Shown piece after piece: positions 1-30,250 of a stretch of DNA of 30,250 nt (its first letter is position 1; each line of letters opens with the position of its first letter). The translations under genes were made by a program, and so were the position numbers. The notes beneath the pieces were generated by a model that saw nothing but the letters and a program-made list of their open reading frames with translations, made no database searches and had not been told where the DNA came from. Source of the DNA: a virus (taxonomy: Duplodnaviria > Heunggongvirae > Uroviricota > Caudoviricetes); IMG/VR virus record IMGVR_UViG_2609459863_000015; one strand, written 5' to 3'.

Positions 1-99
1 GTAATACGTTGACGGGGCAATATGCAGTTCGCTGCATAGCGGTCCGACCCCGTACTGCTCACGCAGCTTATCCAGCAGTGGCATCATTTTTTCCAGAGG
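1..99 (-). CDS. IS3-family transposase OrfB, N-terminal fragment (window-truncated), in the -1 frame overlapping the orfA stop
   Basis: Minus-strand translation of 1..99 gives [33 protein letters not shown], the typical N-terminus of an IS3-family OrfB. An A-rich run (GGAAAAAATGATG) at the orfA/orfB overlap is consistent with the programmed -1 frameshift window of this family. Confidence 0.6.
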
Positions 100-410
100 C
101 GGTCGAACTCCGCCTTCGCAAAATAAGCGGAAGCCTGGCGAAGGATATCGTTACTGCGGCGCAGTTCACGATTTTCACGTTCCAGCTCTTTCAGACGCTG
201 ACGTTCAGCGGTGGTGAGCCCGCCATCACCGCCTCCGGTATCCCGCTCATGCTGGCGTACCCAGACACGCAGAGTCTCCGGTGTACAGCCAATCTTTGGA
301 GCAATGGAACAAATTGCCGCCCACTGTGAGTCATATTCGCCCTGACTTTCCAGAACCATACGAATCGCCCTCTGACGGACTTCGGGGGAAAAACGAGTAT
401 TTTTAGTCAT
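84..410 (-). CDS. IS3-family transposase OrfA (helix-turn-helix plus leucine-zipper protein)
   Basis: 108 aa [64 protein letters not shown]...[26 protein letters not shown] matches IS629/IS1203 OrfA from memory. Confidence 0.85.
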
Positions 411-628: not shown

Positions 629-911
629 TTTGAGAAAAGCAGCGCGTAGTCGGGAATGCCAGGTAAGAATCCCTGGCGTATGTAATGGCAACCCTGAAAC
701 GTCTGTACTGGCACATATCCGGCTGACTGGATTGTGCGGCACCGGTACCAAACCGCCAGACCTGATTGCCACCATTGCATGTTCTGCCTGCCACGACGAA
801 ATCGACCGCCGCACACATTTTGTCGATGCTGCATATGCAAAAGAATGCGCGCTGGAAGGTATGGCGAGAACACAGGTTATCTGGCTGAAAGAGGGGGTTA
901 TTAAGGCGTGA
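621..911 (+). CDS. ybcO: DUF1364-family nin-region protein (YbcO-like, putative nuclease)
   Basis: ORF 582..911; the likely true start is the ATG at 621 ([26 protein letters not shown]...), preceded by AGGAGG at 611..616. Cys/His-rich. Its stop overlaps the rusA GTG start (GTGA). Confidence 0.7.
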
Positions 912-1270
912 ATACCTACAGCATCACATTACCCTGGCCTCCGAGCAATAATCGCTATTACCGCCATAATCGCGGGCGCACGCACGTCAGCGCAGAGGGG
1001 CAGGCATACCGCGATAACGTCGCCCGAATCATTAAAAACGCAATGCTGGATATCGGCCTGGCTATGCCTGTGAAAATCCGCATTGAGTGCCACATGCCGG
1101 ATCGCCGTCGCCGTGACCTGGATAATCTGCAAAAAGCCGCTTTTGACGCACTCACTAAAGCAGGTTTCTGGCTGGATGATGCTCAGGTCGTTGATTACCG
1201 CGTTGTGAAGATGCCTGTTACCAAAGGTGGGAGGCTGGAACTGACCATCACCGAAATGGGGAATGAATGA
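908..1270 (+). CDS. rusA: RusA crossover junction endodeoxyribonuclease (Holliday junction resolvase)
   Basis: 120 aa, [38 protein letters not shown]...[31 protein letters not shown]; matches E. coli RusA from memory. GTG start. Confidence 0.9.
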
Positions 1271-1492: not shown

Positions 1493-1876
1493 ATGCGTGA
1501 TATTCAGATGGTTCTTGAGCGTTGGGGAGCGTGGGCGGCTAATAATCATGAAGATGTGACCTGGTCGTCCATTGCCGCCGGTTTTAAGGGATTAATTACT
1601 TCAAAAGTAAAATCTCGCCCGCAATGTTGTGACGATGACGCGATGATCATTTGCGGGTGCATGGCCCGTCTGAAAAAGAACAACAGCGATTTGCACGATT
1701 TATTAGTAGATTATTATGTAGTCGGTATGACATTCATGTCACTGGCAGGTAAGCATTGCTGCTCTGATGGTTATATCGGGAAAAGGTTACAGAAGGCTGA
1801 GGGCATAATTGAAGGGATGTTAATGGCATTAGATATCCGGTTAGAGATGGATATCGTTGTTAATAACTCTAATTAA
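1493..1876 (+). CDS. Q: Late-gene antiterminator Q (DLP12 QuuD-like)
   Basis: ORF 1478..1876; the likely start is the ATG at 1493 ([22 protein letters not shown]...), with GGAG 6 nt upstream. Cys-rich putative zinc-binding segment [16 protein letters not shown]. Sits in the canonical Q position after rusA/ylcG. Confidence 0.8.
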
Positions 1877-1908
1877 TACGCCAATTATTTACTAAAAGTT
1901 ATTAAAAA

Positions 1909-1928
1909 TGGGGCGTTGAAACGCCCCC
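1909..1928 (-). terminator. Rho-independent terminator for minus-strand (porin / IpeX-like) transcripts
   Basis: GGGGCGT/ACGCCCC stem with a 4-nt loop, followed on the minus strand by ATTTTTAATAA. Confidence 0.5.
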
Positions 1929-2015
1929 AAAAATAAAGGGTAATATATAACAGAAGGTTTGTATAGTTAGAAGCAAGGTTGTGCTTCTAAAGGAAGTGGC
2001 TTGAGGGAGCCACTT

Positions 2016-2056
2016 ATATGTTGGGGAGGCAAAGCCTCCCACAACATATCTTTTAG
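2016..2056 (+). terminator. Long GC-rich hairpin with a short T-tract on the plus strand; possible tR'-like terminator or simply part of the porin 3' UTR structure
   Basis: ATATGTTGGGGAGGC-AAA-GCCTCCCACAACATAT followed by CTTTTAG. Confidence 0.3.
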
Positions 2057-2064
2057 TAATCAAA

Positions 2065-3147
2065 TTAGAACTGGTAAACCATACCTACAGCAACGATATC
2101 ATCGGTAGCAACGCCAGATGCTTTCGTGAAATCGCTCTTATCAATCAGGTTGATTTTGTAGTCAACAAAAGTGGACATATTTTTGTTGAAGTAATAGGTT
2201 GCACCTACATCAACATATTCAACCAGGTCCTGATCACCCCAAACACCCAAGTCTTTTCCTTTAGAATGCAGGTAAGCAACGGATGGACGCAGGCCGAAGT
2301 CGAACTGATATTGTGCAACAGCTTCGAAGTTTTGTGCTTTGTTGGCAATATGGTTATTACCAAAAACAGTCATGTTCTGGGTTTCAGAATAGGTGGTGGC
2401 CAGATAGATGTTGTTCGCATCATATTTCAGACCAGCTGCCCATACTTCAGCATTTTGACCAGAAGCATTCAGACCGTTGTTACCGTAGATAACCTGATTA
2501 TTAGTGCGATCAGATTTAGCATAGGTTGCACCCACGCCGAATCCTTCATACTCATAAGTAGTTGAGAAACCGAAACCATCGCCATTAGCTTCAGTTACTT
2601 CATTTCGGTCATTTTTGCCCTGATACTGAGCTGCAAAGTTCAGGCCATCAACCAGACCAAAGAAGTCGTTGTTACGATAAGTTGCAACACCTGTGGTGCG
2701 ACCAGTCATGAATACATCTGTTTGGGTCCAGGTATCGCCACCGAATTCTGGCAGAACGTCAGTCCACGCACCGATGTCGTATGCTACACCGTAGTTACGG
2801 CCGTAATCGATTGAGCCGTAGTCACCGAATTTCAGGCCTGCAAATGCAAGACGGGTTTTGTCTTTGGAGGAACCTTGAGATTCAGCGCGGTTGCCTTTGA
2901 ATTCATATTCCCACTGACCGAAACCAGTCAGTTGATCGTTGATTTGGGTTTCACCTTTGAAGCCAAGACGGGCATAAGTAGTATCACCATCATCTGCATC
3001 ATTAGAGGAGAAGTAGTGCTTAGCATTAACTTTCCCGTACAGATCCAGCTTGTTACTGTCTTTATTATAAATTTCAGCTGCCTGAGCAGACATCGCCATC
3101 AGTACTGATGCAGCTACAGCAGAAATTGCCACTGTTAATTTTTTCAT
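2065..3147 (-). CDS. nmpC: Outer-membrane porin, NmpC/Lc (OmpC family), phage-borne moron, apparently intact
   Basis: 360 aa with signal peptide [40 protein letters not shown]... and C-terminal ...VAVGMVYQF (terminal Phe typical of OMPs). Matches NmpC from memory. Opposite strand to the flanking Q and lysis genes. Confidence 0.88.
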
Positions 3148-3735
3148 CGTGAGCCCTTTTTTTTGAACTATTATTAAAAAATGATGTCACTGCGCGATAA
3201 ATATTCATCTAATCAATGTGATTATTTCAAGATGTAAGTTTTAGTTTCTCATTTAATTTGTGAAGTAGATCTCTATTTTTATCTGAACTTTTTCTATCGA
3301 AACCTATTTATGGCTCTTATTTGAACAAAAATAAACCTATTAGCTAATTTATATTAATGGCTGTTATTTATGGGGGTTCTATAATTCGGCAGTTTAATTT
3401 AAATCAACTAAAAATAACCTCTGAAATTATTTATTGGTTATTTGTTGAGGTTTTCTTATGTATTTGTGGTGGTGTTTTGAACACTCGGTAGCATTCTCAT
3501 AAATATCATTCAGTGGTTTACGTACGTAAAAAATTGGTTATGCTGTTAAGAGTGGTTACTTCGTCACACAGCTTAAACCCGCCGTCGAGCTGGTTTTTCC
3601 ATTTTTTGAGTCTCGATATTAGCTGATAACTTAATACCTGAGTTATTCACTGACTCCGAGTCTGTTACGTTTCTGCTTTTTTGCGATACGTTGTATTCCC
3701 TCAATTTACACCCGCTTTGTCTGCGAGGTGGGGTT
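3148..3735. promoter_or_regulatory. AT-rich divergent intergenic region: porin promoter and 5' UTR on the minus strand, upstream region and RBS of the holin on the plus strand
   Basis: About 590 bp without convincing ORFs and very AT-rich between 3150 and 3480. GAGGTGGGG RBS just before the holin ATG at 3736. Confidence 0.4.
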
Positions 3736-3951
3736 ATGAAATCCATGGATAAGTTAACAACGGGTGTCGCCTATGGCACCTCAGCAGGTAGTGCCGGTTA
3801 CTGGTTTTTACAGCTGCTCGATAAAGTCACGCCCTCACAGTGGGCAGCAATAGGTGTGCTGGGTAGCCTGGTATTTGGCCTGCTGACGTACCTGACAAAC
3901 CTTTATTTCAAGATTAAAGAAGATAAGCGCAAGGCTGCGAGAGGTGAATAA
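3736..3951 (+). CDS. S: Class II holin / pinholin (phage 21 S21-like) with dual-start motif
   Basis: 71 aa [71 protein letters not shown]. Met1-Lys-Ser-Met4 gives antiholin and holin starts (3736 and 3745). The track ORF begins further upstream at a TTG. Confidence 0.85.
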
Positions 3952-22359: not shown

Positions 22360-25300
22360 ATGGGTAAAGGCAGCAGTAAGGGGCATACCCCGCGCGAAGC
22401 GAAAGATAACCTGAAGTCCACGCAGCTGCTGAGTGTGATCGATGCCATCAGCGAAGGGCCGGTTGAAGGTCCGGTGGATGGATTAAAAAGCGTGCTGCTG
22501 AACAGTACGCCGGTGCTGGACAGTGAGGGGAATACCAATATATCCGGCGTCACGGTGGTGTTCCGGGCCGGTGAGCAGGAGCAGACACCGCCGGAGGGAT
22601 TTGAATCCTCCGGCTCCGAGACGGTGCTCGGTACAGAAGTGAAATATGACACGCCGATCACCCGGACCATCACGTCGGCAAACATTGACCGTCTGCGTTT
22701 TACTTTCGGCGTGCAGGCACTGGTGGAAACCACCTCAAAGGGGGACAGGAATCCATCGGAAGTCCGCCTGCTGGTTCAGATACAACGTAACGGTGGCTGG
22801 GTGACGGAAAAAGACATCACCATTAAGGGTAAAACCACTTCACAGTATCTGGCCTCGGTGGTGGTGGATAACCTGCCGCCGCGCCCGTTTAATATCCGGA
22901 TGCGCAGGATGACGCCGGACAGCACCACAGACCAGCTGCAGAACAAAACGCTCTGGTCGTCATACACCGAAATTATCGATGTGAAACAGTGCTACCCGAA
23001 CACGGCACTGGTCGGCGTGCAGGTGGACTCGGAGCAGTTCGGCAGCCAGCAGGTGAGCCGTAATTATCATCTGCGCGGGCGTATTCTGCAGGTGCCGTCG
23101 AATTATAACCCGCAGACGCGGCAATACAGCGGTATCTGGGACGGAACGTTTAAACCGGCATACAGCAACAACCCGGCCTGGTGTCTGTGGGATATGCTGA
23201 CCCATCCGCGCTACGGCATGGGGAAACGTCTTGGTGCGGTGGATGTGGATAAATGGGCGCTGTATCTTATCGGCCAGTACTGCGACCAGTCAGTGCCGGA
23301 CGGCTTTGGCGGCACGGAGCCGCGCATCACCTGTAATGCCTGGCTGACCACACAGCGTAAGGCGTGGGATGTGCTCAGTGATTTCTGCTCTGCGATGCGC
23401 TGTATGCCGGTATGGAACGGGCAGACGCTGACGTTCGTGCAGGACCGACCGTCGGATAAGGTGTGGACCTATAACCGCAGTAATGTGGTGATGCCGGATG
23501 ATGGTGCGCCGTTCCGCTACAGCTTCAGCGCCCTGAAGGACCGCCATAATGCCGTTGAGGTGAACTGGATTGACCCGAATAACGGCTGGGAGACGGCGAC
23601 AGAGCTTGTGGAGGACACGCAGGCCATTGCCCGTTACGGTCGTAACGTCACGAAGATGGATGCTTTTGGCTGTACCAGCCGGGGGCAGGCACACCGCGCC
23701 GGGCTGTGGCTGATTAAAACAGAACTGCTGGAAACGCAGACCGTGGACTTCAGCGTGGGTGCCGAAGGGCTTCGCCATGTACCGGGCGATGTCATTGAAA
23801 TCTGCGATGATGACTATGCCGGTATCCGCACCGGCGGGCGCGTGCTGGCGGTGAACAGCCAGACCCGGACGCTGACGCTCGACCGTGAAATCACGCTGCC
23901 ATCCTCCGGTACCACGCTGATAAGCCTGGTTGACGGAAGTGGTAATCCGGTCAGCGTGGAGGTTCAGTCCGTCACCGACGGCGTGAAGGTGAAAGTGAGC
24001 CGTGTTCCTGACGGCGTTGCTGAATACAGCGTATGGGGGCTGAAGCTGCCGACGTTGCGCCAGCGCCTGTTCCGCTGCGTGAGTATCCGTGAGAACGACG
24101 ACGGCACGTATGCCATCACCGCCGTGCAGCATGTACCGGAAAAAGAGGCCATCGTGGATAACGGGGCGCACTTTGACGGCGACCAGAGCGGCACGGTAAA
24201 TGGTGTCACGCCGCCAGCGGTGCAGCACCTGACCGCAGAAGTCACCGCAGACAGCGGGGAATACCAGGTGCTGGCGCGCTGGGACACGCCGAAGGTGGTG
24301 AAGGGCGTGAGCTTCCTGCTTCGCCTGACCGTGGCAGCGGATGACGGCCGTGAGCGGCTGGTCAGCACGGCCCGGACGACGGAAACCACTTACCGCTTCA
24401 CACAACTGGCTCTGGGGAACTACAGGCTGACAGTCCGGGCAGTAAATGCGTGGGGGCAGCAGGGCGATCCGGCGTCGGTATCGTTCCGGATTGCCGCACC
24501 GGCAGCGCCGTCGCGGATTGAGCTGACGCCGGGCTATTTTCAGATAACCGCCACGCCGCATCTTGCGGTTTATGACCCGACGGTACAGTTTGAGTTCTGG
24601 TTCTCGGAAAAACGGATTGCGGATATCAGGCAGGTTGAAACCAGCGCGCGTTATCTTGGTACGGCACTGTACTGGATAGCCGCCAGTATCAATATCAAAC
24701 CGGGCCATGATTATTATTTTTACGTTCGCAGTGTGAACACCGTTGGCAAATCGGCATTCGTGGAGGCTGTCGGTCAGCCGAGTGATGATGCATCAGGCTA
24801 TCTGGATTTTTTCAAAGGCGAGATAGGGAAAACCCATCTGGCTCAGGAGCTGTGGACGCAGATTGATAACGGTCAGCTTGCGCCTGACCTGACTGAAATC
24901 AGGACGTCCATAACGGATGTCAGCAATGAAATAACACAGACCGTCAATAAGAAACTGGAAGACCAGAGTGCAGCGATCCAGCAGATACAGAAGGTTCAGG
25001 TTGATACAAATAATAACCTGAACAGCATGTGGGCAGTGAAGCTGCAGCAGATGCAGGACGGACGCCTTTATATTGCGGGTATCGGTGCCGGTATTGAGAA
25101 CACCCCTGACGGCATGCAGAGTCAGGTGCTGCTGGCAGCAGACAGGATTGCGATGATTAATCCTGCGAATGGCAACACAAAGCCGATGTTTGTTGGTCAG
25201 GGCGATCAGATATTCATGAATGAAGTGTTCCTGAAACGCCTGACGGCCCCCACCATTACCAGCGGCGGTAATCCTCCGGCATTTTCCCTGACATCAGACG

Positions 25301-25857
25301 GGAGACTGACGGCGAAAAATGCGGATATCAGTGGCAGTGTGAATGCGAACTCAGGAACGCTCAACAATGTCACGATTAACCAGAACTGTACGATTAAGGG
25401 CATGCTGGAGGCGACCCAGGTCAGAGGAGATTTCGTTAAAGCTGTATCAAAAGCCTTCCCGAAAAAAGTCGGTACGTGGGGTAACACGGAAACACCAAAC
25501 GGTACGGTTACAGTCACCATCAGCGATGATCATAACTTTGACCGCCAGATTATTATTCCGCCCATTATTTTTAACGGTATAGCGTATGACGATCCGGGGA
25601 GCGGAAATAACCCAGGAGGCACGCGATACACGGGTTATGGTTTTGAAGTTCGCAAAAACGGCGTATTAATCGCATCCAGAGAAACTAAAGGGGCCATTCC
25701 CGGTAGTTACAGTGCAGTTATTGATATGCCGAGTGGCAGGGGAAGCGTCACTCTGGAGTTTAAGATTTTCCAGAAAGGCAATCAGGGGGCAGGCAATATC
25801 ACCGACTGTACGGTGATTGTGACCAAAAAAGCCGCTTCCGGCATCAGTATTCGTTGA
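22360..25857 (+). CDS. J: Tail tip / central tail fibre host-specificity protein J; C-terminal receptor-binding region divergent from lambda
   Basis: 1165 aa. N-terminal about 800 aa match lambda gpJ ([34 protein letters not shown]...). After ...[13 protein letters not shown] the sequence is mosaic relative to my memory of lambda J: conserved island [28 protein letters not shown]...[15 protein letters not shown], divergent distal end. Confidence 0.88.
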
Positions 25858-29500: not shown

Positions 29501-29666
29501 CACTGCTGCAAGCGCAGGCGCACATGCACATACTGTCGGTATTGGTGCTCATACGCACTCCGTTGCGATTGGCTCACATGGACATACCATCACCGTTAAC
29601 GCTGCGGGTAACGCGGAAAACACCGTCAAAAACATCGCATTTAACTATATTGTGAGGCTTGCATAA
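26586..29666 (+). CDS. stf: Side tail fibre protein Stf, intact, with extended Ala/Ser/Thr-rich repeat region and His-rich (HxH) C-terminal receptor-binding domain
   Basis: 1026 aa. N-terminus [39 protein letters not shown]... matches lambda Stf. Central low-complexity repeats (AAKTSETNA..., about 26940..27960), duplicated [27 protein letters not shown] fibre-repeat motifs, and GAHTHS / GAHAH / GSHGH motifs near the C-terminus. Confidence 0.85.
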
Positions 29667-30250
29667 TGGCATTCAGAATGAGTGAACAACCACGGACCAT
29701 AAAAATTTATAATCTGCTGGCCGGAACTAATGAATTTATTGGTGAAGGTGATGCATATATTCCGTCTCATACAGGTCTGCCAGCAAACAGTACCGATATT
29801 GCACCGCCGGATATTCCGGCAGGCTTCGTGGCTGTTTTCAACAGTGATGAGGCATCGTGGCATCTCGTTGAAGACCATCGGGGTAAAACGGTTTATGACG
29901 TGGCTTCCGGCGACGCGTTATTTATTTCTGAACTCGGTCCGTTACCGGAAAATGTTACCTGGTTGTCGCCGGGAGGGGAATATCAGAAGTGGAACGGCAC
30001 AGCCTGGGTGAAAGATGCAGAAGCAGAAAAACTGTTCCGGATCCGGGAGGCGGAAGAAACAAAAAACAGCCTGATGCAGGTAGCCAGTGAGCATATTGCG
30101 CCGCTTCAGGATGCTGCAGATCTGGAAATTGCAACGGAGGAAGAAACCTCGTTGCTGGAAGCCTGGAAGAAGTATCGGGTGTTGCTGAACCGTGTTAATA
30201 CAACAACTGCACCGGATATTGAATGGCCAACAGTACCCATTATCGAATAG
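29666..30250 (+). CDS. tfa: Tail fibre assembly protein Tfa
   Basis: 194 aa [79 protein letters not shown]...; lambda Tfa-like. Start overlaps the stf stop (TAATG). Stop codon is at the very end of the window. Confidence 0.88.

Follow-up and report, generated by a model that had tools for sequence, protein, structure and literature searches.

The small RNA (sRNA) IpeX is known from the cryptic prophage DLP12 (qsr') of E. coli K-12 and from phage PA-2, and its description is said to go back to Castillo-Keller, Vuong and Misra in 2006 (J Bacteriol 188:576). In the literature, IpeX is processed out of a longer porin transcript and causes a post-transcriptional drop in the synthesis of OmpC and OmpF, while OmpA is spared. 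The size of ipeX is given as 167 nt (PMC12197685), and repression of both OmpC and OmpF by IpeX is described in several accounts (PMC12197685; PMC5069750; PMC3333887; PMC8065619).

The enterobacterial sRNAs SdhX, CpxQ and DapZ, which derive from 3' UTRs, resemble IpeX in that each has its terminator in common with the parental mRNA and displays a conserved single-stranded seed on the 5' side of this terminator; for IpeX, too, processing out of a longer transcript has been reported. In contrast to these sRNAs, IpeX is found on a prophage cargo (moron) gene, is unusually long, contains three extra hairpins and displays a reported Hfq dependence that varies by target. With MicC, MicF, RybB and RseX, IpeX shares the post-transcriptional repression of ompC and/or ompF, and the action of MicF on ompF, where the ribosome-binding site is covered, is similar to that expected at the predicted IpeX site (see below). 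Unlike these regulators, to which it is unrelated in sequence, IpeX is horizontally acquired and is tied to the synthesis of a replacement porin.

Here, we analyze an ipeX locus found in a 30,250-nt stretch of DNA (referred to as the window) of a tailed virus of the Caudoviricetes (IMG/VR record IMGVR_UViG_2609459863_000015). A lambda-like prophage of O104:H4 outbreak strains matches the window from position 464 on at 99.9% identity. The locus has the layout of the ipeX loci of DLP12 and PA-2, i.e., a Q gene, a convergent porin gene with its 3' UTR and terminator, and the lysis genes, and it displays the same gene order: ybcO, rusA, ylcG and quuD on the plus strand, the convergent porin-ipeX unit, and then essD, rrrD and the Rz genes. 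The coordinates of the features are listed in Table 1.

Other parts of the window are noted only briefly. Positions 1-463 are the end of an IS3-family insertion sequence, which adjoins the prophage at the ybcN/ninE junction and contains the transposase orfA at 84-410 (minus strand) as well as, at 13-129, a frameshift pseudoknot of the ALIL family (RF01497, 120 bits); in the 99.9% identical O104:H4 prophage there is no insertion sequence at this junction. The rusA gene (908-1270, plus strand) is an intact 120-aa ORF here; in the near-identical O104:H4 prophage, the annotation gives a frameshift in this gene. The Rfam family IS009 (RF02111, 227 bits) yields a full-length match at 30009-30207 (plus strand) within the tail-fiber-assembly ORF at 29666-30250, where the match to this candidate RNA family coincides with conserved coding sequence.

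Table 1. Features of the porin-ipeX locus and of the tail tip gene (positions in the window)
Feature	Position	Strand	Basis
quuD (Q antiterminator), convergent with porin/IpeX, downstream limit of the element	1493..1876	+	ORF and annotation
IpeX, 167 nt, 3' UTR of the phage porin mRNA	1898..2064	-	Homology and fold
Rho-independent terminator, GGGGCGU-UUCA-ACGCCCC, then A and UUUUU	1904..1927	-	Fold and terminator scan
Unpaired A/U-rich linker, 39 nt	1928..1966	-	Open in minimum-energy and centroid structures
Predicted weaker anti-ompF segment UGUUAUAUAUUACCCUUU, nt 113-130 of IpeX	1935..1952	-	Pairs with ompF -14..+3
Predicted anti-ompC seed AACCUUCUGUUAUAU, linker nt 106-120 of IpeX	1945..1959	-	Complementarity to ompC -21..-7
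Hairpin 3, 9 pairs, 6-nt loop	1967..1990	-	Centroid fold
Hairpin 2, 8 pairs, 6-nt loop	1994..2015	-	Centroid fold
Hairpin 1, 15 pairs, one bulge, 3-nt loop	2016..2049	-	Centroid fold
Phage porin, Lc/NmpC/OmpD type, 360 aa, intact, signal peptide	2065..3147	-	ORF; porin annotation in identical prophages
Porin promoter and leader	3148..3400	-	96% identical to PA-2 lc and K-12 nmpC upstream regions
Tail tip protein J, C-terminal receptor-binding part, 434 type	25255..25854	+	Sequence identity

The interval downstream of the porin gene had been proposed, in a first-pass annotation based on the letters of the DNA, to be an IpeX-like element, and this proposal was borne out by alignment with the reference ipeX interval of K-12 MG1655 DLP12 (the 3' end of nmpC and the nmpC-quuD intergenic region), where the identity is 96-97% over ~206 nt. 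The likeness to the DLP12 and PA-2 elements, which comprises this nucleotide identity, also includes the length, the hairpins, the linker and the terminator; the differences from K-12 and PA-2 amount to ~7 substitutions and one 1-nt indel, none of which is found in the linker seed. Among 127 homologous loci, which were drawn from phage records, viral contigs and genomes, one identical sequence across the ipeX interval is found in K-12, PA-2 (J02580) and phage 434B, in agreement with the first-pass statement that PA-2 harbors the same sequence as DLP12, and the variant in the window is the second commonest. The element is located between the porin stop codon (2065-2067) and the terminator (1910-1927 plus the U-tract). 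With the limits taken here, i.e., from the base after the stop codon (2064) to just beyond the U-tract (1898), its length is 167 nt, and if counted to the last U of the tract (1904) it is 161 nt. A near-identical sequence is experimentally active against OmpC and OmpF (PMC12197685; PMC5069750). As judged by homology and placement, the segment 1898-2064 is almost certainly the known prophage sRNA IpeX.

The element is thereby one that is already known, and the additions made here are a model for its pairing with ompC and the identification of an annotation gap. Rfam 15 does not contain an IpeX family, and no Rfam match at the gathering threshold was obtained in the region 1750-2250, where the best sub-threshold matches were to traJ_5 (19 bits) and AniS (18.5 bits); in a search to E 10 both had E values above 1 and they were dismissed as chance matches. 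The RefSeq feature table of K-12 is also without an ipeX feature at the nmpC-quuD position.

The minus strand of 1895-2064 folds at -58.5 kcal/mol, compared to -29.1 +/- 3.5 kcal/mol for 200 dinucleotide-preserving shuffles (z = -8.5), none of which was as stable. The earlier description of a structured stretch of ~170 nt between the porin stop (2065) and a terminator is thus supported, and the fold contains the four stem-loops that were claimed. These were described as consecutive, however, which does not hold, since the 39-nt linker separates hairpin 3 from the terminator. The terminator itself, first placed at 1909-1928, was correct to within one base: the stem-loop at 1910-1927 is composed of 7 pairs, 6 of which are G-C, and is followed by AUUUUU (1904-1908), where the terminator scan agrees with the fold. 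A U-rich stretch, UUUAUUUUU, is found in the linker just 5' of the terminator. As in other 3'-UTR sRNAs, there is an intrinsic terminator with a U tail and an unpaired linker, which here holds an invariant block of 21 nt.

Across 24 distinct variants of IpeX, 99.1% of the pair cells are standard pairs, a number that should be read together with the observation that covariation is uninformative, i.e., the divergence is too low to prove the fold and the shuffle control was not significant. Apart from eight one-sided wobble changes, a single compensatory change was found, in E. albertii, where a C-G pair at the top of hairpin 1 is replaced by U-A; in hairpin 3 an A-U pair is replaced by a G-U wobble in 7 of the 24 variants with pairing retained. 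Variable columns make up 14 of 78 in the stems, 13 of 20 in the hairpin loops and bulge, 6 of 17 in the 5' tail and 8 of 15 in the 3' tail, and the loop of hairpin 1 differs among the variants. The 21-column linker block AACCTTCTGTTATATATTACC, on the other hand, is unchanged in all 24 variants, that of E. albertii included. Because this unpaired block is more conserved than the stems, the conservation points to a sequence-specific function of the linker. The E. albertii copy (2483-2667 of its locus) is the most divergent IpeX; it displays a C-to-U change in the anti-ompF segment, where a G-U pair is still possible, and its anti-ompC 15-mer is fully conserved.

IpeX was scanned against the leaders of K-12 ompC and ompF using windowed local hybridization with accessibility terms. 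Duplex folding of the whole molecule against these leaders had yielded meaningless global duplexes and was abandoned in favor of the windowed scan. The ompC segment that is predicted to pair with the linker seed, AUAUAACAGAGGGUU, includes the Shine-Dalgarno sequence GAGGG, and the predicted duplex is composed of 15 contiguous pairs, one of which is G-U, with a hybrid energy of -20.3 kcal/mol, or -14.4 kcal/mol after opening energies. A 15-pair helix was obtained in 3 of 2000 shuffles of IpeX and in 7 of 2000 shuffles of the target. The hybrid energy was matched by 1 of 150 shuffles and by none of 424 real enterobacterial translation-initiation regions (from the flanks of fetched loci), the best of which reached -19.0. 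The target is widespread: 5358 of 5426 E. coli genomes contain the ompC 51-mer at an identity of 99% or more, and ompC orthologues of many genera have the same site. All complete IpeX loci contain the anti-ompC 15-mer, which is absent from the porin loci of other genera.

For ompF the predicted duplex, which spans the Shine-Dalgarno sequence and the start codon, has 10 + 5 pairs and an energy of about -15 to -16 kcal/mol, and an extended duplex, up to position +10, reaches -18.2. Taken alone, the ompF match is not significant, as 23 of 150 shuffles reach its best local hybrid of -16.3 and 11 of the 424 regions reach -16.2. The leaders of ompA and of the phage porin itself gave background scores in the pairing scan. 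The predicted order, i.e., strong pairing with ompC, moderate to weak pairing with ompF and none with ompA, matches the reported target specificity and would likewise be in line with an Hfq dependence that is reported to differ between the targets. An IpeX-ompC duplex was not found in the literature searched, where papers on the human IPEX syndrome dominated the matches to one query.

A mode of action that does not involve pairing is said to have been suggested in the original description of IpeX, the abstract of which (Castillo-Keller et al. 2006) reportedly mentions a required region of ompC in which no complementarity was found, as well as an effect on ompC that is independent of Hfq and an effect on ompF that is not. 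The main rival explanation of the mechanism is that IpeX acts by titration of a protein factor or a chaperone, or through its hairpins, and that the match in the linker is fortuitous or secondary. In addition to the reported lack of complementarity, the strong conservation of the hairpins would be accounted for by such a mechanism. A 2025 review also states that regulation by IpeX is not by complementarity only (PMC12197685). Published statements on the Hfq dependence differ (PMC5069750 compared to another paper), and in the latter IpeX is Hfq-independent with a single likely-direct target, which would agree with action without pairing. However, the 15-pair duplex falls exactly on the Shine-Dalgarno sequence of ompC and involves the sole long unpaired segment of IpeX, its energy is without a match in the 424 real initiation regions, and the seed segment is invariant whereas other unpaired positions vary freely. 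We consider action without pairing to be unlikely on these grounds, while still deserving attention.

Pairing of the linker is, in our estimate, the somewhat favored mechanism of ompC repression, as predicted from the modeled duplex; it is not placed higher because of the reported lack of complementarity and the statement in the 2025 review. The duplex may have been overlooked so far; on the other hand, earlier work may have weighed the pairing model and discarded it, or the activity of ipeX may reside in another part of the RNA. A more far-reaching proposal is that the linker is a dual anti-Shine-Dalgarno module, with AACCUUCUGUUAUAU directed against ompC and UAUUACCCUU against ompF, which spares the phage porin and, in combination with a 434-type tip, serves to remove the receptor. 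This proposal is tentative and we would place it at clearly less than even odds.

It is improbable that the interval is a passive 3' UTR, where hairpins protect from exonucleases, the terminator ends transcription and there is no role in trans in this prophage. Highly expressed genes often end in stable hairpins and a terminator, and the placement between the convergent porin gene and quuD would suit such a role, but the sequence is nearly identical to one that experimentally inhibits OmpC/OmpF, and a function as a stabilizer leaves the invariant, unpaired 21-nt block unexplained. A small protein encoded in the interval can be dismissed with near certainty: ORFs are present in the window (53 aa from TTG, 1902-2063; 26 aa from ATG, 1967-2047; the plus-strand "ORF1" of PA-2) and hypothetical proteins are annotated here in some phage records, but these ORFs are not conserved among the homologues (lost or truncated in K-12 and E. 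albertii), i.e., the 53-aa ORF is missing in K-12 (no TTG, 1-nt indel), the 26-aa ORF begins within the 15-pair stem and, in E. albertii, is closed by a TAA after 5 codons, and ORF1, which is 70 aa in PA-2, is 35 aa here.

The porin that precedes IpeX is 90% identical to Lc of PA-2 with the differences clustered in two short segments; compared to Lc, it is the surface-loop segments that differ. While nmpC of K-12 is broken by IS5, the porin gene of this prophage is intact, and the first-pass suggestion of a prophage that carries both a porin and a porin-repressing RNA is in line with these findings. In the PA-2 lc record, a CRP-type binding site is annotated, and its counterpart at 3256-3276 (minus strand) is conserved base for base. 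Because this site is conserved upstream of the porin, expression of the porin and IpeX is probably catabolite-controlled. No promoter-like site was found on the minus strand in the region 1928-3800, which includes the porin gene and the segment just upstream of IpeX, and the absence of an internal promoter-like site is consistent with IpeX as the last part of the porin mRNA.

A late promoter antisense to IpeX was also considered and rejected, as the 189-nt gap between the Q gene and the porin gene is too short and a terminator-like hairpin on the plus strand is located elsewhere. This hairpin, CCCGCCGTCGAGCTGG followed by TTTTTCCATTTTTT, is found at about 3578-3610, between the porin promoter and essD; in K-12 the stem is fully paired, and a single mismatch is found in the stems of PA-2 and of this prophage. 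The hairpin resembles tR', the terminator of the late operon, and would then place the late promoter between the porin and the lysis genes, not by Q.

Loss of the receptor in lysogens is the classical picture for PA-2. In the prophage described here, the C-terminal 200 residues of the tail tip protein J are 96% identical to those of phage 434 J and 48% identical to those of lambda J. The receptor of phage 434 is OmpC, which is recognized via J, and the C-terminus of J sets the choice of receptor (PMC3509688; PMC11101478). Given this close match of the J tip to 434, OmpC is the probable receptor, i.e., the prophage probably adsorbs to the very porin that its IpeX represses, while it supplies a replacement porin. 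A strict association of IpeX with a 434-type tip is not found; the link is frequent but partial: of 35 phage genomes with IpeX, at least 18 encode a 434-type J, and PhiR70_1 harbors an identical IpeX and a different J.

IpeX is found in 2511 of 5426 complete E. coli genomes, nearly always beside an annotated porin, and 36 phage records contain it as well. Of the 80 porin loci that most resemble the porin of this prophage (one per genome and mostly from other enterobacterial genera, i.e., Citrobacter, Salmonella, Enterobacter, Klebsiella, Serratia and others), IpeX is seen only in E. coli and E. albertii. Phage 434B (OL657227.1; 710-3192) harbors the K-12 DLP12-type nmpC-ipeX with IS5 in an annotated "region of 434 nonhomology", which was evidently gained through recombination with DLP12; the record of wild-type 434 (OL657226.1) is not among the IpeX matches.

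The best explanation as a whole, which combines ipeX as the 3' UTR of the porin mRNA with a proposed anti-Shine-Dalgarno action of the linker, a porin swap and removal of the receptor, is given a probability of about 0.85, with the pairing itself only somewhat favored. In this scheme, transcription would start at the porin promoter and end at the Rho-independent terminator of ipeX, which forms the last part of the porin mRNA, and the three 5' hairpins together with the terminator would stabilize the RNA and act as its scaffold. Base pairing of the invariant, unpaired linker with the translation-initiation region of ompC (-21..-7), and more weakly with that of ompF (-14..+3), would block binding of the ribosome, i.e., a classical anti-Shine-Dalgarno action. 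The leader of the phage porin, which lacks the target site, would escape IpeX. In the resulting lysogen, the phage porin would take the place of the major porins. As the tail tip belongs to the OmpC-binding type of phage 434, loss of OmpC would also remove the likely receptor of the phage itself and thereby lead to superinfection exclusion.

The porin-ipeX locus may accordingly be viewed as one cargo unit that combines a new porin with repression of OmpC/OmpF, in a prophage that is 99.9% identical to one of O104:H4 outbreak strains. A porin swap of this kind would alter the permeability of the outer membrane, including antibiotic uptake, and the display of phage receptors. IpeX is present in nearly half of all complete E. 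coli genomes, yet it is left unlabelled by automated pipelines because there is neither an Rfam model nor a RefSeq K-12 feature. The predicted 15-pair match to ompC makes the question of how IpeX acts experimentally addressable by mutation and compensation. If the dual-module reading is true, IpeX would be no exception to regulation by base pairing and, in phages with 434-type tips, it would be a device for removal of the receptor.
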